A stretch of 64,000 bases of DNA from Alphaproteobacteria bacterium (GTDB lineage: Bacteria > Pseudomonadota > Alphaproteobacteria > JAPOUT01 > G958296285), in NCBI GenBank assembly GCA_965204775.1, contig CBDBFH010000019.1, positions 4,394 to 68,393 of the forward strand, given 5' to 3'. The position numbers were made by a program, and so were the translations under genes. Shown here piece after piece: positions 34,275 through 42,349 of the stretch. Position 1 is the stretch's first letter, and every line of letters begins with the position of its first letter. The notes below the pieces were generated by a model. It saw nothing but the letters and a program-made list of their open reading frames with translations. It was not told the DNA's origin and made no database searches.

Positions 34275-35765
34275 TCAGGCGATCAGTTCGTAGTCGGCGA
34301 GGTTGACCGAGGACGTCGCCGCCGCGTAGTCGCGGGTGTGCGAAGACCAGTTCTGGGTGATCTTGCCCTGCGCGTTTTTGTACCATGAGGTGCAGTTGGG
34401 GTCGGCCCAGACGCGCGTGCGCAAATCCTTTTGCAGTTGGGCGTTGAAGCGGGCCTGGGCTTCGGGCGAGGGCATCAGGGCGCGGGCCCCCTTCTCTTCC
34501 AGAAGTTTCAGCGCCTTGACCGCGTAATTCACCTGATCCTCGATCATCACCAGAATCGAGTTGTGGCCCAGATTGGTGTTCGGCCCGTAGAGGACGAAGA
34601 AATTGGGAAAGCCGGAGACGGTGATTCCCAGATAGGCTTCCGGCCCCTCGCGCCAGGCTTCGGCCAGACGGGTTCCGGCGCGGCCCTCGATATCCAGCGA
34701 CCAGTGCCAGCCGGTGGTCTCAAAACCGGTCGCGCAGACCAGAACGTCCAGTTTGTGCAAACTGCCGTCTTGAATCTCGACCCCGTCGGGGACGATGCGC
34801 GTGATTTTTTCCGTCACCAGATCGACATCCTCGCGCAGCAGGCAGGGGTAGAAGTCATCCGAGAAGAGGATTCGCTTGCAGCCGATTGGGTAATCGGGCG
34901 TCAGTTTTTTGCGCAATGCGGGGTCGGAAACCTGCTCCTCCAGATGGGTTTTGGCGAGAAGCGTCTGAAAGTCGCGGCCCTGTTTGGTCCAGGCGAAGGC
35001 CTGCCAGAAAAAATGATCGGCGTTTTCATAGATCATCTGCCGGTTGGCCTGGGCGATGCGCAGGGCGGCTTCGGGATTGGTCGCCATCAGGGCTTTTTCC
35101 TCGTCGCTGATCGGGCGGTCGAGGCGGGGGACGACCCAGTTGGGGGTGCGCTGGAAGACGGTCAGATGGGCGGCTTCCTGCGCGACCTCCGGAATCAGCT
35201 GAACGGCGCTCGCCCCGGAGCCGATCACCCCGACCCGCTTTCCGGCCAGCGCCAGCGCGCGGTCCCAGCGGGCGGAATGCATCACCGGCCCGGCGAAGCG
35301 CGCCAGACCCTCAATGTCGGGCATGACCGGGCGATTGAGCTGGCCAAGCCCGGCGATCACCGCATCGGCCTCGATTTCGCCGCCCGAGGCCAGGGTCAGC
35401 CGCCAGCAGCGCGCGGCTTCGTCCCAGCGCGCCGCGCGAATCTCCTCGGACAGGCGCAGGCGGGGCTTGAGCTGAAAGCGCTCGACCACCTCCTCGGCAT
35501 AGGCCTGAACCTCGTCCGAGCGCGGAAACAGATGACTCCAGCGCCCGCTGGGCGCAAAGGAAAGATGATAGAGGGCGACCGGCACGTCGCAGGCGCAACC
35601 GGGATATTTGTTCTCGTGCCAGACGCCGCCGACTTTCGCGTTGCGGTCGAAGATCAGGAAATCGCCGATGCCGCTTTCCTTCAGCCGGGCCGCCGCGCAC
35701 AAACCGCCGAAGCCCGCGCCGATGATCGCCACGCGCAGTTTTTCATCAGGCTTTTTGCTCATCAC
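34275..35765 (-). CDS. flavin-containing / Baeyer-Villiger-type monooxygenase (NAD(P)/FAD-dependent)
   Basis: Two Rossmann motifs (VAIIGAGFGG and GKRVGVIGSGASA) and FMO-type spacing. 496 aa. Confidence 0.85.
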   Translation of the reverse strand: MMSKKPDEKLRVAIIGAGFGGLCAAARLKESGIGDFLIFDRNAKVGGVWHENKYPGCACDVPVALYHLSFAPSGRWSHLFPRSDEVQAYAEEVVERFQLKPRLRLSEEIRAARWDEAARCWRLTLASGGEIEADAVIAGLGQLNRPVMPDIEGLARFAGPVMHSARWDRALALAGKRVGVIGSGASAVQLIPEVAQEAAHLTVFQRTPNWVVPRLDRPISDEEKALMATNPEAALRIAQANRQMIYENADHFFWQAFAWTKQGRDFQTLLAKTHLEEQVSDPALRKKLTPDYPIGCKRILFSDDFYPCLLREDVDLVTEKITRIVPDGVEIQDGSLHKLDVLVCATGFETTGWHWSLDIEGRAGTRLAEAWREGPEAYLGITVSGFPNFFVLYGPNTNLGHNSILVMIEDQVNYAVKALKLLEEKGARALMPSPEAQARFNAQLQKDLRTRVWADPNCTSWYKNAQGKITQNWSSHTRDYAAATSSVNLADYELIA

Positions 35766-35809
35766 TCTCTCCCCCTTGTCTTTTTGTCCTTCGCGCTACG
35801 CCCGGCGGA

Positions 35810-36223
35810 TCATTGCGGATCCTGCGCGAAGACCGGCAGCGTCTCGTCGATATGGGCCCAGGGCGGCGCCGAGCTTTTCCACAGAGTCATCGACGGCTTG
35901 AGCCAGGAGGCGTCGTCCAGCGTCCCGGCCTTGATCCCCCAGATCGCCGGCGTGGCTTTTATGTCGGAGAAGAGGGGGGTGCCGCATTTGGCGCAGAACC
36001 GGCGGGTGACGATATTGCCTTTCCGGGTTTTGCAGTCATAGGCCTGGGTTTCGCCGCGGGTGAGTTCAAACGCATCACGGGCGACGATCAGCACCGCCGC
36101 GGCATTGCCGCCCGAAACATAGCGGCACTCGCGGCAGTGACAGTTGATGAACGCCATCGGCTCGCCCGTGCAGCGATAGCGCACCGCGCCGCACATGCAG
36201 CCGCCTTCAAACGGGGTGGTCAT
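35810..36223 (-). CDS. GFA family protein (glutathione-dependent formaldehyde-activating / CENP-V-like Zn-binding)
   Basis: CMCGAVRY...CHCRECR...CAKCGTPLF cysteine pattern of the GFA family. Confidence 0.8.
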   Translation of the reverse strand: MTTPFEGGCMCGAVRYRCTGEPMAFINCHCRECRYVSGGNAAAVLIVARDAFELTRGETQAYDCKTRKGNIVTRRFCAKCGTPLFSDIKATPAIWGIKAGTLDDASWLKPSMTLWKSSAPPWAHIDETLPVFAQDPQ

Positions 36224-36286
36224 TTGCGCTCTCCTTCCTTTTCCCTTTGTCCGTCCTTGAGCCTCGTCCGGGACGGGAGCAGTCTA

Positions 36287-37306
36287 TCACGACGTTCCGG
36301 GATTGTCGGCCTCGCCTGCCTCGGCGCTTTCAGCGGCGCTTCTGGCCGCGGCGGCGCTGCGCCGGGCGGCGGCGCGGGCCAGCACCTGACAGAGTTTATC
36401 CGCCGCCGCCGCGACGTCGATCTTCTCGACCGCCGCGACCTCGCGGGCCATGCGCTCCAGCGCCGCCTCAAACAATTGCCGCTCGCTGTAGGACTGCTCC
36501 GGCTGCTGATCGGAGCGGTAGAGGTCGCGCACCACCTCGGCCAGCGCCATCAGGTCGCCGGAGTTGATTTTGCTCTCATATTCCTGGGCGCGGCGGCTCC
36601 ACATGGTGCGCCGAATCCGCGCCCGGCCCTGCAAAATTTTCAGCGCGGCGGCGATCTCGGCGGGCTCGGCCAGTTTGCGCAGCTGCACCGACTCGACTTT
36701 GTCGACCGGAACCGAGAGGCGCATCCGCTCCTGGGTGAAGGCGACGACGAAGAATTCGGTCTCAATCTCGGCGATGCGCTCCGAGCGAATCTCGATCACC
36801 TGTCCAACCCCATGCGAGGGATAGACCACGTAGTCATTGGGCTTGAAGGACAAACGCCGCCGGGGCGCGGCGGCCTGGCGGACGGGGCGGCCCCGAAAGC
36901 GCGGGCCGGAGCCAGAGGCCGGGCTTTTGGCGGCGGACTTCGGCTTTGCCGCCGCGCGCGCCGCGGCCACCCGTGGCATGGTCACGCGGGGCGTAGTCAC
37001 GCGGGGCGTGGTCACGCGTGGCACAGCTGCCTGCGCCGCCGCCTTCTTTTTGGCCGGGGTTGGGGCGGGTTTGCGGGCGGGTTTGGCGCTTTTGGTGTTT
37101 TTGGCGGTTTTGGCCTTCTGGCGGCTTTTGGCGCTTTTTGCCGGTTTCGCGCTCTTTGCCGGGGCGGGGCGGGTCCTGGCGGCGGGCTTTGATGATCCGG
37201 CCGGCTTTTTGCGCGGCGCAGATCGCGCCCGGGATGCCGCTTTTGCGGAACGAGGCTTGACCGGCTGCGCCTTTTTCTTGTCCGCCTTTTTGGCTCTGGC
37301 CGCCAT
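36287..37306 (-). CDS. cdnL: CarD/CdnL-family RNA polymerase-binding transcription factor with ~170-aa N-terminal Lys/Ala/Pro-rich histone-H1-like extension
   Basis: The C-terminal 170 aa contain the CarD_CdnL_TRCF domain (YVVYPSHGVGQVIEIRSERIAEIETEFFVVAF). The N-terminal half is KAP-rich (AKKADKKKAQPVKP..AKPAKSAKS..) and includes a PRVTT repeat. Confidence 0.8.
   Translation of the reverse strand: MAARAKKADKKKAQPVKPRSAKAASRARSAPRKKPAGSSKPAARTRPAPAKSAKPAKSAKSRQKAKTAKNTKSAKPARKPAPTPAKKKAAAQAAVPRVTTPRVTTPRVTMPRVAAARAAAKPKSAAKSPASGSGPRFRGRPVRQAAAPRRRLSFKPNDYVVYPSHGVGQVIEIRSERIAEIETEFFVVAFTQERMRLSVPVDKVESVQLRKLAEPAEIAAALKILQGRARIRRTMWSRRAQEYESKINSGDLMALAEVVRDLYRSDQQPEQSYSERQLFEAALERMAREVAAVEKIDVAAAADKLCQVLARAAARRSAAAARSAAESAEAGEADNPGTS
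36971..37030. repeat. 15-bp tandem repeat x ~4 (CGGGGCGTGGTCACG-like) inside the cdnL N-terminal extension
   Basis: Encodes PRVTTPRVTTPRVTMPRV in frame on the minus strand. Confidence 0.8.
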
Positions 37307-37366
37307 TCCCGAGTCCCCGCAAAGGCCTCTATATCACACCGGCGCGGCGGCGGCAACCGGAGCGGG

Positions 37367-37705
<339 letters not shown>

Positions 37706-37709
37706 GGGG

Positions 37710-38168
37710 TCATGAGCCTCGCCTTTCCAGAACCCGGCGGCGCGCCTCGGCGGCGGCGCGGTCGGGAACATAGAGCAGCCCGGCCAGGCGGCGCAATAAA
37801 TTGGCCTCGAAGTCGTCGAGCCGCCCGTCGGCATAGACCACCTCCCACAGGCGCTCGATCAGTTGGAGTTTGCCGTCCTCGCCCATTTGGTCATTGACCG
37901 TACGTGTCCAGCGATAGAGGTCGGCGGCTTCGGCTTCGGCGCGGGTGGCGCGCGCCAGCAGCCGGGCGCGGTCCGGCGCGGCAAGGCCAAAGCCTTCGCC
38001 CAGAAGCCGGTCGAGCGCGCGCTCCTCTGGCGGACTGATCGCGCCGTCCGCCCGCCCGGCATGGACCAGCAGCGCGGCTTGCGCCAGACGCAAAGCCTCG
38101 CCCGGCGGCGGCGCGGGTGGGGCGGCGGCGGCTTGAGGCCGGAGCAATCTTGTCAGAAACTTAAGCAT
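37710..38168 (-). CDS. TerB-like (tellurite-resistance TerB / DjlA-N family) protein
   Basis: About 150 aa, helical, with the acidic motif [20 protein letters not shown]...[23 protein letters not shown] typical of the TerB fold. Start at MLKFL chosen. Confidence 0.55.
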
Positions 38169-38449
38169 TTTTAAGAGTTCGGTCCGCCCGGTTAAGACAG
38201 GCGCGAAATCCGGAACAAAGCATGTGCGAATCGCTGACCTGGCGCATTCCCCCTTTTGTTCTCTCCCATATGAAGTGGGAGGAGGGCGCGGCCCCCCAAG
38301 GGAATGATTGCCTGCCGGAACAAAACCGCCCTTTATCTGTGCGCAGATTAAGCCTTTTGTCAACCTTGATCGCGGGGGCGGGGGAGGCCAAAGTGCGGAG
38401 CGTCTCGGGTTTTTCTCCGGGGCCGAACAGGAGCCAGCGCCGCTGCCCC

Positions 38450-39415
38450 ATGCGGATCATCCGGGATGAGAGACGTCTGTCCGCGCCGCTTCGCGGCGGG
38501 GTTTATGCGCTGGGCAATTTTGACGGTCTCCATCGGGGCCATCAGGCGGTGATTGCGCAGGCGGTCGCGCAGGCGGCGGCGCGGGGCGCGGTGAGCGGGA
38601 TGATTACGTTTGATCCGCCGCCGGGCGACTATTTCCGGCCCGGCGACCCCCCTGCCCGCCTGACCGGCTTCCGCCTGAAGGCGCAATTGCTGGCGGGTCT
38701 GGGTCTGGACTTGCTGATTTTGCTCCGCTTCGGCCCGGGGCTGGCCCGGATGAGCGCGCAAGCTTTTGCCGAGCGCATTTTGGCCGGGCGGATCGGGGCG
38801 GGCGGTGTTGTGGTCGGGCCGAATTTTCGCTTCGGCAAGGACCGGGGCGGCGACAGCCGGACTTTGCGCGAGATGGGGGCGCGGGCGGGCTTTGCCGTGC
38901 AGGTCGCCGAGCAGGTCGGCGGGGCGGGCGCGCCGGTCTCTTCGACCCGGGTGCGGGCGCTTTTGGGGGCGGGGCGGCTTGCGCCGGCGGCGGAGCTTTT
39001 GGGCCGTTGGTGGGGGTTTTCGGGCCGGGTCCGCCGGGGCGAAGGGCGCGGGGCGCAATTGGGCTTCGCCACCGCCAACCTGCCGGCGGCCCGGCGCATG
39101 CCTTTGGCCTTCGGGGTCTATGCGGCGCGGGTGTGGATCGGGCGCGGAGCGCATCGCGGCTGGCATCAGGCGGTCTTGAATCTGGGCGCACGCCCGACTT
39201 TCGGGCCGGCGGCGCCATTGATGGAGGTGCATCTGCTGGATTTTTCCGCAGACCTTTATGGGGAGCGGCTGAATGTCTTTCCCCTGTTTTTTTTGCGCGC
39301 CGAGCGGCGTTTTTCCGGTCCGGCGGCCTTGCGGGCGCAGATTGCCGAGGACATCCGGGCGGCGCGGCGCGGGCTGGCGCGGGCGGGGCGGGGCAGTTTT
39401 GCGCCCTTTGCCTGA
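38450..39415 (+). CDS. ribF: bifunctional riboflavin kinase / FMN adenylyltransferase RibF
   Basis: YALGNFDGLHRGHQAVI (FAD synthetase) and a C-terminal riboflavin kinase domain. Start at MRIIRDE. Confidence 0.85.
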   Translation: MRIIRDERRLSAPLRGGVYALGNFDGLHRGHQAVIAQAVAQAAARGAVSGMITFDPPPGDYFRPGDPPARLTGFRLKAQLLAGLGLDLLILLRFGPGLARMSAQAFAERILAGRIGAGGVVVGPNFRFGKDRGGDSRTLREMGARAGFAVQVAEQVGGAGAPVSSTRVRALLGAGRLAPAAELLGRWWGFSGRVRRGEGRGAQLGFATANLPAARRMPLAFGVYAARVWIGRGAHRGWHQAVLNLGARPTFGPAAPLMEVHLLDFSADLYGERLNVFPLFFLRAERRFSGPAALRAQIAEDIRAARRGLARAGRGSFAPFA

Positions 39416-39463: not shown

Positions 39464-42349
39464 GTGATGAGCGGCGGCAAGACAGGCAAGCGGGCGGGCG
39501 GCGCGGGGAATCGCTATCGCGACACGCTCTTTTTGCCGCGCACCGCGTTTCCGATGAAGGCCGGGCTTCCCGCCCTGGAGGAGAAGCTGCTGGCGCGCTG
39601 GGAGCGGATGGACCTTTACGGGCAACTGCGCCGGGCGGGGCGGGGCCGGGAGAAGTTCGTTTTGCATGACGGCCCGCCTTACGCCAATGGCGCGATTCAT
39701 GCCGGCACCGCCCTCAACAAGATTTTGAAGGATTTCGTCAACCGCTCGCAGCAGATGATGGGGCGCGATGCGGTCTATGTTCCGGGCTGGGACTGCCACG
39801 GCCTTCCGATTGAGTGGCAGGTCGAGGAGGGTTACCGGGCGCGGGGGCGCAAGAAGCCGGAGATTGCGCGCGCCGAGTTGCGGCGCGCCTGCCGGGCTTT
39901 CGCGTCTCGCTGGATGGAAGTTCAGCGCGCCCAGTTTCAGCGTCTGGGGGTGGCCGGCGACTGGGCGCATCCCTACACGACGATGGATTTTGAGGCGGAG
40001 GGGGGGATTGTCGCGGAGTTTTTGAAATTCGCGATGGACGGCTCGCTCTATCGCGGCCTGAAGCCGGTGATGTGGTCGGTGGTCGAGCAGACGGCGCTGG
40101 CCGAGGCCGAGATTGAATACCGGCCGCGGGTTTCGCCGGCCTTGTGGGTGCGCTTTCCGGTGATCGAAGGTTTGGGGGCGGCGGCGGCGAGCGCGGTGAT
40201 CTGGACGACGACGCCCTGGACGCTGCCGGGCAACCGGGCGGTGGCGTTTTCGCCCGCGCTGAGTTACGGGCTTTACCGGGTTCGCGCGGACGCGCCAGGG
40301 CAGAGTCTGGCGCAGACCGGCGAGGTCGTGATTCTCGCCGATGCGCTGGCCGGGGCGGTCGCGCGGGCGGCGGGGCTGCCGCAAGGTTTTGAGCGCATAA
40401 GCGATGCGCCGGAACTGGCCGGACTGGTCTGCGCCCACCCTTTGCGCGGGGCGGGCTATGAGTTTGACGTTCCGCTTCTGGCGGCGGATTTCGTCACCGC
40501 CGAGACGGGGACAGGGCTGGTCCATATCGCGCCCGGTCACGGGCGGGACGACTTTGAGCTGGGCCGGGCGCATGGCCTGGACCTGCCGGAGACGCTGGAC
40601 GCCGACAGCGCCTATACGGGCGAGGCGCCGGGCTTTGCGGGCTTGCGGGTTCTTGATGCGCGGGGCGGCGAGGGCCCGGCCAATGCGCGGGTTTGCGAAG
40701 CGCTGCGGGCGCGCGGGCGGGTGCTGGCGCAAGGCGCGCTGCGCCACGACTATCCGCATTCCTGGCGCTCGAAAGCGCCGGTGCTCTTCCGCGCGACCGC
40801 GCAATGGTTCATCAGCATGGAGAAGACGGGTCTGCGGCGCAAGGCGCTGGCGGCGATTGATGCGGTGCGCTGGCACCCGGCCTCGGCGGGGGCGCGGATT
40901 CGGGCGATGGTCGAAAACCGCCCCGACTGGGTGGTCTCGCGCCAGCGCGTCTGGGGGGTTCCGCTGACGCTGTTCGTCAAGCCGGAGAGCGGCGAGATTT
41001 TGCGTGACCCGCAGGTCAACGCCCGGATCGTTGCGGCGGTCAAACAGGACGGGGCCGACGCCTGGTTTGAGCGCCCGGCGCGCGCCTTTCTGGGCGAGGC
41101 TTACCGGGAAGACGCGTGGGAGAAGGTCGAGGACATTCTGGATGTCTGGTTCGACTCCGGCTCAAGCCATGCGCTGGTTTTGGAGCCGCGGGCGGATTTG
41201 CGCTGGCCGGCCTCGCTCTATCTGGAGGGCTCGGATCAGCACCGGGGCTGGTTTCAGTCTTCGCTGCTGGAATCTTGCGCGACGCGCGGGCGGGCGCCTT
41301 ACGAGGCGGTTTTGACTCACGGCTTTGTGCTCAATGCGCAGGGGCGCAAGATGTCGAAATCGGAGGGCGCGGCGATTTCGCCGCAAAAGATTTGCGGCGC
41401 GCGCGGGGCCGACATTTTGCGGCTGTGGGCGGCGCTCAGCGACTATGGCCAGGATGTCCGGATCGGCGAGGAGAATCTGGCGGCGGCGGGCGAGGCCTAC
41501 CGCAAATTGCGCAACGGGCTTCGCTTTCTTCTGGGCAATTTGAGTCACTGCGGCGCGGGCGGCGGGGCGGCGGTTGCCGAAAGCCGCATGCCGGAACTGG
41601 AGCGGCTGATGCTTCACTATCTGTTCGAGCGGCGCGCGCGGGTGGAGGCGGCCTATGCCGGCTTCGACTTCAAGAGCGCGCTCCAGGAGATTTTATCCTT
41701 CACGCTTCTGGATCTCTCCTCGTTTTATTTCGACATTCGCAAGGATGCGCTTTACTGCGATCCGGCCTCTTCGCTGCGGCGGCGTTCGGCCTGCCGGGTT
41801 TTGGATCACCTGTTTTGTTTTTTGACGGCCTGGCTTGCGCCCCTGCTGTGCTTTACGGCGGAGGAGGCCTGGAGCGCGCGCGGCGGCGGGGATGAGGCGG
41901 ATTCGGTTCATCTGCGCCTGTTCCCGCAGGCACCGGCGGGCTGGCATGATCCGGGGCTGGGCGAGAAATGGGAGCGGGTGCGGCGGGTGCGGCGGGTGAT
42001 TTCGGGGGCGCTGGAGATTGAGCGCAAGGCGGGGCGGATCGGAGCGAGTCTGGACGCCGCGCCTGAGATTTATATTGCCGATCCCGATCTGCTTGCCGAA
42101 TTGTCGGGTCTGGATCTGGCCGAGATTGCGATCACCAGCCAGGCGTCGCTCAAGCCGGGGCGGGGGCCGGCGGGGGCGTTTCGCCTTTCCGATGTTCCGG
42201 CGGTTGCGGTGGCGCCGCGGCTTGCCCAGGGGCGGCGCTGTGCGCGGTCGTGGAAGATTCTGCCGGAGGTCGGCGCGGATCCGGCCTATCCCGATGTGAG
42301 TCGGCGCGATGCGGCGGCGCTGGCCGAGCGGGCGGCGGCGGATGGCTGA
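39464..42349 (+). CDS. ileS: isoleucine-tRNA ligase
   Basis: HDGPPYANGAIHAGTALNK (HIGH), KMSKSEG (KMSKS), ~960 aa. ribF-ileS-lspA synteny. Confidence 0.95.
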   Translation: MMSGGKTGKRAGGAGNRYRDTLFLPRTAFPMKAGLPALEEKLLARWERMDLYGQLRRAGRGREKFVLHDGPPYANGAIHAGTALNKILKDFVNRSQQMMGRDAVYVPGWDCHGLPIEWQVEEGYRARGRKKPEIARAELRRACRAFASRWMEVQRAQFQRLGVAGDWAHPYTTMDFEAEGGIVAEFLKFAMDGSLYRGLKPVMWSVVEQTALAEAEIEYRPRVSPALWVRFPVIEGLGAAAASAVIWTTTPWTLPGNRAVAFSPALSYGLYRVRADAPGQSLAQTGEVVILADALAGAVARAAGLPQGFERISDAPELAGLVCAHPLRGAGYEFDVPLLAADFVTAETGTGLVHIAPGHGRDDFELGRAHGLDLPETLDADSAYTGEAPGFAGLRVLDARGGEGPANARVCEALRARGRVLAQGALRHDYPHSWRSKAPVLFRATAQWFISMEKTGLRRKALAAIDAVRWHPASAGARIRAMVENRPDWVVSRQRVWGVPLTLFVKPESGEILRDPQVNARIVAAVKQDGADAWFERPARAFLGEAYREDAWEKVEDILDVWFDSGSSHALVLEPRADLRWPASLYLEGSDQHRGWFQSSLLESCATRGRAPYEAVLTHGFVLNAQGRKMSKSEGAAISPQKICGARGADILRLWAALSDYGQDVRIGEENLAAAGEAYRKLRNGLRFLLGNLSHCGAGGGAAVAESRMPELERLMLHYLFERRARVEAAYAGFDFKSALQEILSFTLLDLSSFYFDIRKDALYCDPASSLRRRSACRVLDHLFCFLTAWLAPLLCFTAEEAWSARGGGDEADSVHLRLFPQAPAGWHDPGLGEKWERVRRVRRVISGALEIERKAGRIGASLDAAPEIYIADPDLLAELSGLDLAEIAITSQASLKPGRGPAGAFRLSDVPAVAVAPRLAQGRRCARSWKILPEVGADPAYPDVSRRDAAALAERAAADG

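Follow-up and report, generated by a model that had tools for sequence, protein, structure and literature searches.

The CdnL/CarD proteins are global, often essential regulators of sigma-70 open-complex stability, and alphaproteobacterial promoters are unusually dependent on them. In the usual view of the field, CdnL has no DNA-binding domain and reaches promoters through RNA polymerase (RNAP). The standalone members, such as those of Caulobacter crescentus, Rhodobacter sphaeroides, Mycobacterium tuberculosis, Thermus thermophilus and Myxococcus xanthus, are about 160-200 aa long and combine a Tudor-like RNAP-interacting domain (RID) with a helical C-terminal domain. The family has been described as having no identifiable DNA-binding domain (PMC2919716), and tail-less CdnL binds DNA weakly, at 5-10 uM (PMC5324124). 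The RID/beta1-lobe site adjoins the upstream part of the bubble (PMC4593161), and the role of a Trp and a basic patch in CdnL/CarD has also been described (PMC4593161, PMC5324124). More than 80% of alphaproteobacterial CdnLs carry a C-terminal AA/VA ClpXP degron (PMC5324124), and the C-terminal degron of CdnL was described in a further study as well (PMC11034885). Myxobacterial CarD, of which those of Anaeromyxobacter dehalogenans and Vulgatibacter incomptus have a K/A/P-rich, H1-like domain, is built from a CdnL-like module and a C-terminal basic disordered domain; this domain binds DNA, brings activity to its maximum and can be exchanged for other basic disordered domains (PMC4374960, PMC9304148).

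The gene described here is located on the reverse strand of an alphaproteobacterial contig, in a window of 64,000 nucleotides; its features are listed in Table 1. The open reading frame claimed in the preliminary description, 36287..37306, was confirmed exactly by the ORF listing, with an ATG start and 339 aa plus stop. ATG 37306 is the first possible start, with an in-frame TGA 10 codons upstream. The fdxA gene, in which the FdxA equivalog match spans 37370-37705, lies directly upstream on the same strand, and this synteny recurs in alphaproteobacterial relatives, fdxA being found upstream of cdnL in 46 of 80 related loci. The gene downstream of cdnL encodes a GFA-family protein (PF04828). 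A promoter and terminator scan of the fdxA-cdnL spacer gave no sigma-70-like promoter and no convincing terminator, and an Rfam search of 35500-38600 returned 0 matches. The plus-strand ORF 36837..37601 (254 aa) was dismissed as a shadow ORF, since it continues antisense across fdxA as well.

Table 1. Features of the long-form cdnL gene and its upstream neighbour (window coordinates)
Feature	Coordinates	Strand	Evidence
fdxA ferredoxin, conserved upstream neighbour of cdnL	37367..37705	-	NF045490 FdxA_Protbact, E 1e-49
fdxA-cdnL spacer, 60 nt from fdxA stop to cdnL ATG; weak GGGGA 7 nt upstream of ATG	37307..37366	-	sequence
cdnL (CarD-family RNAP-binding factor), long form	36287..37306	-	ORF listing; Pfam RID + CarD_C; PDB sequence matches; Foldseek
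N-terminal basic disordered tail, aa 1-152	36851..37306	-	composition; AlphaFold; no Pfam family; similar tails in relatives
Degenerate 9/18/27-bp in-frame repeats encoding AKSAKPAKSAKSRQKAKTAKNTKSAKP	37076..37162	-	TRF periods 9, 27, 18
15-bp in-frame tandem repeat, PRVTT-PRVTT-PRVTM-PRVAA, aa 96-115	36962..37021	-	TRF; residue mapping; codon shuffles
RNAP-interacting Tudor-like domain (RID), aa 154-211	36674..36847	-	PF02559 (CarD_TRCF_RID), E 8.7e-15
W236-S-R238-R239 codons: wedge Trp and basic pair, inside invariant motif RTMWSRRAQEY	36590..36601	-	W236 aligned with M. tuberculosis CarD W85
CarD C-terminal helical domain (CarD_C), aa 221-304	36395..36646	-	PF21095, E 4.6e-24
C-terminal end, Ala-rich then acidic, aa 305-339 (~35 aa), ending ...ADNPGTS	36290..36394	-	sequence

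Judged by sequence and structural model, the protein is a bona fide CdnL (CarD-family) factor, with a predicted role as a general transcription factor. In phmmer searches the core (aa 153-312) aligned with residues 2-161 of M. tuberculosis CarD (query 153 = CarD 2), and it also matched M. xanthus CdnL and the CarD proteins of Streptomyces and Thermus; sequence matches to CdnL/CarD in the PDB had E values of 2e-22 to 6e-17. AlphaFold gave the core a pLDDT of 85-95, with the five beta strands of the RID (159-200) above 90 and the CarD_C helices at about 90. In Foldseek the whole core matched Thermus CarD (4l5g) and CarD in the M. tuberculosis open complex (6edt_M) with a TM of 0.84 and an rmsd of 2.6 A, the RID also matched CdnL/CarD RIDs, and the predicted fold superposes on RPo-bound CarD. 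The Tudor-like RID and helical C-terminal domain of the standalone proteins are both present, together with the wedge Trp, the RR basic pair and the Y and R of the basic-hydrophobic patch. W236, R238, R239, Y273, R276 and P200 were invariant among 44 homologues and correspond to the functionally tested Caulobacter residues W90, R92, R93, Y127, R130 and P54 (PMC5324124), with the numbering matched through a constant offset of 146; the counterpart of Caulobacter R52 is Ser198. By homology, the core RID would dock on the RNAP beta1-lobe.

Compared with standalone CdnL/CarD, the protein has 152 extra N-terminal residues, predicted to be disordered and polycationic. The preliminary description of a CarD/CdnL-family factor with a long, low-complexity N-terminal extension rich in K, A and P was borne out by Pfam and composition; the extension is indeed long, but measures about 152 aa and not the ~170 aa first given (query 153 = M. 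tuberculosis CarD residue 2). The tail consists of 27% A, 17% K, 14% R, 14% P, 9% S and 0.7% D+E (one acidic residue), with a net charge of about +43 and a pI of about 12; in six verified neighbouring genes the corresponding values are K 3%, R 9.5%, A 14%, P 6% and D+E 12%. Its pLDDT of 47-58 and the lack of secondary structure in the AlphaFold model predict disorder. A Pfam search with the tail alone gave no family (the sole match was a chance one to IER, E 6.3), neither the full protein nor the tail matched a histone family or the winged-helix H1 domain (PF00538), and no RGRP AT-hooks were found in the protein sequence. The 15-bp repeat encoding PRVTT was present as noted earlier, with its coordinates off by ~9 nt from the 36971-37030 then assigned. 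TRF detected it at 36981-37022 (period 15, 2.8 copies, 92% match), and its lag-15 score of 19 was equalled by 0 of 2000 codon shuffles (5.8 +/- 1.4). The 9-bp and 27-bp KSAKP-type arrays, reached by 11% and 4% of codon shuffles, were not clearly above low-complexity expectation. The 15- and 18-bp TRF periods, which are without indels, are multiples of 3.

K/A/P-rich tails also occur in mycobacterial HupB/MDP1 and topoisomerase I, Pseudomonas AlgP and Chlamydia Hc1/Hc2. Such tails are low-complexity, disordered and built from repeats, and they lend non-specific DNA affinity to the folded DNA- or RNAP-related domain that carries them. The folded partner in the present protein differs from all of these, and its tail is richer in Arg and poorer in Lys than the classic PAKK/KAAK tails. 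The label 'histone-H1-like' can refer to composition at most: in being K/A/P-rich, highly basic and predicted to be disordered the tail is similar in kind to the C-terminal domain of eukaryotic linker histone H1, but there is no homology, no winged-helix globular domain and no Pfam match, and only one S/TPxK-type motif was found (TPAK at aa 83). The Lys content is also lower, about half of typical H1 C-terminal domain values.

The spread of the extension was followed by comparing homologues, as had been proposed, and in-frame basic extensions were found in most of the nearest homologue clusters. A search with the core only, in which the 149 representatives were those of the nearest 50%-identity clusters, found 121 of them to carry an N-terminal extension of at least 50 aa (range 50-377 aa), while the full-length query gave 97 of 120 matches with an in-frame extension of at least 50 aa. 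The top-scoring matches P0001 and P0002 were set aside as short-contig proteins with a duplicated C-terminal domain. The long-form architecture spans Parvibaculaceae, Hyphomicrobiales and many uncultured alphaproteobacterial lineages. The extension had been regarded as unusual, which these counts contradict, and lengths of 143-456 aa for the alphaproteobacterial family were already tabulated, without comment, in a 2010 survey (PMC2919716). A normal CdnL length of ~160-170 aa, as first supposed, is only partly right, since the short alphaproteobacterial forms in this comparison have 177-200 aa and long forms are frequent. The customary description of CdnL (standalone, ~125-200 aa, without DNA-binding appendage) does not hold for a protein of 339 aa with a 152-aa basic tail; because most nearest homologue clusters are equally long, it is the size descriptor that is too narrow, and the protein does not stand outside the family. 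In the literature, no description of an N-terminal, lysine-rich or disordered CdnL/CarD extension was found beyond that tabulated length range (PMC2919716). A length filter of 120-200 aa in surveys (PMC4593161), together with the fact that every model CdnL/CarD is a short form, may be why the long-form class has escaped study.

The combination of a CdnL-like module with a disordered basic domain is shared with myxobacterial CarD. As recognised in the preliminary description, the layout is reversed, the basic domain being N-terminal here and C-terminal in CarD (PMC4374960, PMC9304148). The tail also differs from the myxobacterial domain in having neither the acidic segment of the HMGA type nor AT-hooks, no carG-like gene is adjacent (the neighbours are fdxA and the GFA-family gene), the core resembles CdnL of the sigma-A housekeeping type and not CarDNt, and the lineage is alphaproteobacterial and not Cystobacterineae. 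Our preferred reading, to which we give a probability of roughly 0.55, is a canonical CdnL whose fused tail tethers it to DNA by non-specific electrostatic contacts. Tail and core would form one polypeptide, with the 152 residues intrinsically disordered and polycationic. We infer that the tail binds DNA and affects transcription, most likely as a sequence-non-specific electrostatic tether to DNA (the nucleoid). CdnL would then be more concentrated locally at promoters and dwell there longer, and the tail may touch flanking DNA near the beta1-lobe. A tail acting as a DNA tether would therefore fill, from the opposite end, the role of the C-terminal HMGA-/H1-like disordered domain of myxobacterial CarD.

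Many alphaproteobacterial CdnLs have N-terminal basic tails of this kind, which have gone unstudied and whose probable role is to tether the factor to DNA. If the tail does bind DNA, many alphaproteobacteria (Parvibaculaceae, Hyphomicrobiales and many uncultured lineages) would use a mechanistically different, DNA-tethered CdnL. This would be a natural counterpart of the CarD HMGA/H1-like fusion in reversed orientation, and would offer a simple setting in which to ask how a general transcription factor is tuned by disordered polycationic tails. More tentatively, and with some doubt on our side, a large share of alphaproteobacterial CdnLs could have independently re-created at the N-terminus the CarD design of an RNAP module with a disordered basic DNA-binding domain, yielding a DNA-tethered, nucleoid-associated general activator in which tail length, set by repeats that expand and contract in frame, would tune global open-complex stabilisation at promoters.

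The tail might instead be translated with little or no specific function. On this view, which we regard as unlikely, slippage during replication of a GC-rich gene would have expanded the short basic leader of the short forms into a nearly neutral low-complexity stretch, tolerated because the CdnL core is undisturbed. In its favour are the tandem repeats inside the tail, the lack of conserved tail residues in the 44-homologue alignment and a tail length of 0-377 aa that differs even among related lineages, the nearest relative (P0019/L001) having a basic leader of 21-28 aa only. Other long-form genes, aligned at the DNA level in three independent related pairs, had tail dN/dS values of 0.48, 0.22 and 0.29 against 0.035-0.087 for the core, or 5-14 times higher. 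However, these values are still below 1, and 9 of 9 tail indels in the same pairs were multiples of 3; such tails are therefore translated and weakly constrained. Both figures were obtained on the tails of those other long-form genes; for the 36287..37306 gene, no relative with more than 64% core identity was found among 5.8 billion proteins and the GTDB genomes. Tail dN/dS of 0.2-0.5 represents relaxed constraint, a range that nearly neutral low-complexity expansion would also give.

The charge of the tails speaks against neutral expansion. Median contents of the extensions were 0.21 for K+R, 0.23 for A and 0.05 for D+E, and net charge per residue exceeded +0.1 in 88% of long tails across very different GC contents, which indicates selection on charge. 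The tails are K/T/S-rich in low-GC lineages and A/P/K/R-rich in high-GC lineages, so that charge is kept and sequence is not; among the homologues, P0074 has a precomputed Pfam match to HC2, which the tail studied here does not. The persistence of the architecture across the lineages named above is a further point against neutrality. Under the DNA-tether reading, the tail appears to have arisen by 'accordion' evolution through in-frame slippage and duplication, with selection that appears to act on charge and disorder and not on sequence.

A functional tail whose ligand is not DNA, serving in RNA or polyphosphate binding, in RNAP/CdnL condensates or in control of protein stability, seems to us rather improbable. 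A polycationic disordered region can bind any polyanion, and a role in stability deserves attention since this protein is without the usual C-terminal AA ClpXP degron: it ends ...NPGTS, in contrast to alphaproteobacterial CdnLs generally, an AA terminus being found in 103 of the 149 homologue representatives, and the AA degron governs CdnL clearance in starvation (PMC11034885). However, tail and terminal AA occur together in most long-form homologues, so that the tail does not generally stand in for the degron, and the only experimentally studied basic disordered domains of the family act via DNA (PMC4374960). For the DNA-tether reading there is still the caveat that a disordered polycation might just as well bind RNA, polyphosphate or acidic proteins.

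As the genome has no close relative, the start codon of this gene, and with it the translation of its tail from ATG 37306, is something we infer rather than show. The SD-like signal at this ATG is weak, but the internal start candidates have no SD-like sequence at all. The annotated frame has the highest GC3, but the shadow frame on the antisense strand appears just as coding, and codon-position GC does not separate the two. The distance from fdxA to the core is about 300 nt in short-form genomes and 700-1280 nt in long-form genomes, where an open frame fills the gap. An untranslated tail, with an internal true start (e.g. TTG at codon 152, or ATG110/GTG113) and an upstream frame that is a by-product of GC-rich, T-poor sequence, would agree with the weak SD, the rarity of stop codons in 70% GC DNA, the internal starts that gene callers sometimes pick in homologous genes and a terminator-like hairpin at the tail/core junction (although the region's 5 such sites are within the shuffle expectation of 3.7 +/- 2.2), but it is very improbable, as it leaves unexplained the extreme A-over-T strand bias (AT skew down to -0.76), the near-absence of acidic codons, the in-frame repeat periods, the in-frame basic extensions of more than 100 homologue clusters, the multiple-of-3 indels and dN/dS below 0.5 in related pairs, and a spacer of ~500 nt after fdxA. 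The same extensions, indels and dN/dS values, and an architecture conserved in relatives, argue against the antisense or GC artefact once raised as an alternative. An N-terminal 'MAARKK' motif seen at several GTDB loci was dropped as support for the start codon, being present in 4 of 198 long forms only.

The description of CdnL as essential is not general, since Caulobacter CdnL is non-essential (PMC5324124). For annotation, long-form cdnL genes easily receive a wrong start call or are split by frameshifts at homopolymers, and the long-form homologues carry no annotation beyond 'CarD family transcriptional regulator'.

The cdnL ORF was found on the minus strand at 36287..37306, exactly where the preliminary description had placed it, and encodes a product of 339 aa. 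Its ATG, 60 nt past the stop of the upstream gene, is the earliest possible start, with an in-frame TGA 10 codons upstream. Comparison with PDB sequences revealed similarity to M. xanthus CdnL (E 2e-22) and also to CarD of M. tuberculosis (Mtb), Streptomyces and Thermus, and residues 153-312 were aligned to residues 2-161 of Mtb CarD. AlphaFold, with a 44-sequence alignment, gave pLDDT values of 85-95 for aa 151-330, and the predicted core could be overlaid on the structures of Thermus CarD and of CarD within the M. tuberculosis open complex, with TM 0.84 and rmsd 2.6 A. W236, R238, R239, Y273, R276 and P200 are invariant in this alignment; W236 is aligned with Mtb W85, and by a constant offset of 146, not by alignment, the residues correspond to W90, R92, R93, Y127, R130 and P54 of Caulobacter CdnL, which have been mutationally tested (PMC5324124). 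In CarD/CdnL the RNAP-interacting domain (RID) sits on the beta1-lobe and the C-terminal domain forms a wedge at the upstream bubble edge, -14 to -10 (PMC4593161). Therefore, from the conserved tested residues and the fold superposition, we conclude that the core is a complete, canonical CdnL. By all the sequence and structure criteria tested, the protein belongs to the CarD_CdnL_TRCF family; what it does not fit is the usual picture of a standalone protein of about 160-200 aa with no DNA-binding domain.

Coordinates of the CdnL domains, the tail repeat and the neighbouring genes
Feature	Position	Strand	Evidence
CarD_TRCF_RID	aa 154-211 of cdnL product		Pfam, E 8.7e-15
CarD_C	aa 221-304 of cdnL product		Pfam, E 4.6e-24
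PRVTT-PRVTT-PRVTM-PRVAA repeat	aa 96-115, nt 36962-37021	-	residue mapping
fdxA, directly upstream of cdnL	37370-37705	-	
GFA-family gene, downstream of cdnL	35810-36223	-	
TerB-family gene	37713-38165	-	
ribF	38447-39415	+	
ileS	39464-42349	+	

Since the Mtb CarD alignment begins at residue 153, the N-terminal extension is 152 residues long, shorter than the ~170 aa first estimated. It consists of 27% A, 17% K, 14% R, 14% P and 9% S with one acidic residue (net charge about +43, pI about 12), against 3% K, 14% A, 6% P and 12% D+E in six verified neighbouring genes, and no other K/A/P-rich coding segment was found in the 64-kb window. Residues 1-150 are predicted to be disordered (pLDDT 47-58, without secondary structure, same alignment), and no Pfam family was found for the tail. 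The label 'H1-like' points to a resemblance in composition only, the tail not being an H1 homologue; its Lys content is about half that typical of H1 C-terminal domains, and the classic Lys/Ala/Pro-rich tails, as on HupB, TopA, AlgP and Hc1, have more Lys and less Arg. The in-frame 15-bp PRVTT repeat does exist, about 9 nt from the position originally given; at 36981-37022 TRF detected 2.8 copies of a 15-bp unit that match at 92%, and the lag-15 signal of the tail exceeded that of all 2000 codon-order shuffles. The 9- and 27-bp KSAKP-type arrays beside it were not clearly above the composition expectation from codon-order shuffles. Right where tail and core meet (codons AAAPRRRLSF), a terminator-like GC-rich hairpin is followed by GTTTGTCCTT at 36856-36874 (-); such sites are not in excess in the region (5 versus 3.7 +/- 2.2 in shuffles).

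Among the 120 best homologues of the full-length query, 97 have an in-frame N-terminal extension of at least 50 aa (K+R 0.2-0.3, A about 0.3, P 0.1-0.2, D/E almost nil). Because the tail itself could bias this ranking, a second search used the core alone (aa 146-339) as query, in a set of 1.84 billion representatives at 50% identity. Among the 149 best core-realignable representatives, 121 had an extension of 50 aa or more (median 191, maximum 377), with medians of K+R 0.21, A 0.23, P 0.09 and D+E 0.05, and the net charge per residue was above +0.1 in 88% of long tails. The extension is thus widespread, with the reservation that 50% clustering inflates fast-evolving long forms and gives a prevalence above that by species: long basic tails occur at ~13 of 80 GTDB species loci. 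At one further locus (L026, 2085-3060, long-read MAG) the K/A/P-rich tail ORF and the CarD core lie in successive frames, split by a frameshift near the junction that is probably a homopolymer error. In 46 of the 80 loci, cdnL is preceded by fdxA. Between fdxA and the CarD core there are about 300 nt in short-form genomes; in long-form ones the interval is 700-1280 nt and is taken up by the open frame. In frame-blind DNA alignments of three independent related long-form pairs (L004/L006, L007/L023 and L030/L079), all nine tail indels were multiples of three, and tail dN/dS was 0.48, 0.22 and 0.29, versus 0.035-0.087 for the core. Judged from these sequence comparisons, which are the decisive evidence for tail coding in the relatives, long-form tails are translated and subject to weak purifying selection. 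With the architecture recurring, indels in register and tail dN/dS below 0.5, an antisense or GC artefact can be set aside.

We infer that the tail would bind DNA electrostatically and non-specifically; this would anchor CdnL on the nucleoid or on DNA flanking promoters and thereby increase its occupancy of open complexes. The analogy is with myxobacterial CarD, whose disordered HMGA-like domain binds DNA, maximises activity and is exchangeable for other basic disordered domains, the corresponding domain in Anaeromyxobacter and Vulgatibacter CarD being H1-like and K/A/P-rich (PMC4374960, PMC9304148). Caulobacter CdnL, which has no tail, binds DNA weakly, at 5-10 uM (PMC5324124). The window protein is not itself a myxobacterial CarD, as its basic domain is at the opposite end, the N-terminus, and it has neither AT-hooks nor an adjacent carG.

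No residue is conserved across tails in the homologue alignment. The nearest relative (P0019/P0391; locus L001, 1.73-Mb chromosome OY282459.1) has only a 21-28-aa K/A/P-rich leader; this short leader and the tandem repeats inside the window protein's tail suggest that the tail lengthened through in-frame slippage. Tails are A/P/K/R-rich in high-GC lineages and K/T/S-rich in low-GC ones, as in the 65-85-aa tails of L030, L031 and L079 (e.g. KKPVAKKPVAKKPVAKK), which are not A/P-rich; evidently, charge and disorder are maintained, not sequence, and composition tracks genome GC. A nearly neutral low-complexity expansion would fit the absence of conserved positions but is unlikely, given the maintained charge and the coding constraint in the related pairs. 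A polycationic disordered tail would equally suit a ligand other than DNA, the formation of condensates or a part in protein stability; with the CarD precedent pointing to DNA, we consider this rather improbable.

For the window's cdnL, coding evidence from its own sequence is weak: open frames arise easily in T-poor DNA of 70% GC, and GC3 peaks in the annotated frame, yet the antisense shadow frame scores equally well. A weak Shine-Dalgarno-like signal (GGGGA, 7 nt upstream) precedes the ATG, and none was found at internal candidate starts. Because the nearest sequence in the protein collection and GTDB reaches 64% core identity at most, we infer translation of this tail from its relatives, whose in-frame constraint makes an untranslated tail with an internal true start very improbable. 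A 254-aa ORF at 36837..37601 (+), antisense to the tail and also crossing fdxA antisense, was rejected as a shadow ORF; its hydrophobic-looking poly L/F/A/G product mirrors K/A-rich codons.

In a 2010 family survey, a length range of 143-456 aa for Alphaproteobacteria was tabulated and left unremarked, and CdnL homologues were described as lacking an identifiable DNA-binding domain (PMC2919716), and a 2015 survey limited homologues to 120-200 aa (PMC4593161). Full-text literature searches aimed at the extension found no published description. The window gene is therefore an ordinary representative of a widespread long-form variant, visible in databases but apparently uncharacterised.

The window CdnL ends in ...ADNPGTS (36290-36310, -) and, like P0019, has no C-terminal AA/VA ClpXP degron, a signal that is present in >80% of alphaproteobacterial CdnLs and governs CdnL clearance in starvation (PMC5324124, PMC11034885). 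A terminal AA was found in 103 of the 149 representatives. No sigma-70-like promoter, convincing terminator or Rfam element was found around cdnL. Apart from its own genome's copy, IleS of the window is at most 63% identical to any sequence, the named matches being mostly Parvibaculum or Parvibaculaceae, and the window is therefore from a deep-branching alphaproteobacterial MAG. The same genome's IleS is in the protein collection (P0270, 100% identical, 145,288-nt NCBI/ENA contig); its CdnL was found neither by the homology search nor by an exact look-up.

Several homologues are irregular. Long-form cdnL genes are prone to splitting in assemblies; in P0396, too, the reading frame shifts after the tail, at a poly-Pro run. 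Within one 90% cluster (P0097/P0398/P0400) the same gene is called 334, 221 or 214 aa as pipelines choose internal starts, so public start annotation of long forms is inconsistent. The top-scoring matches, P0001 and P0002, are CdnL proteins in which the C-terminal domain is duplicated in tandem; their contigs measure 1.2 and 1.7 kb, and they are probably assembly chimeras. A Hyphomicrobiales-type long-form subset (P0003, P0014, P0043 and P0088) shares, within tails that are otherwise unconserved, the motif AQPKISAPVTPKD(I/V)A, missing from the window protein. One of these, P0014, is a typical alphaproteobacterial long form (344 aa, 873-kb contig) labelled Leptospira interrogans, and its assembly is probably contaminated or mislabelled.
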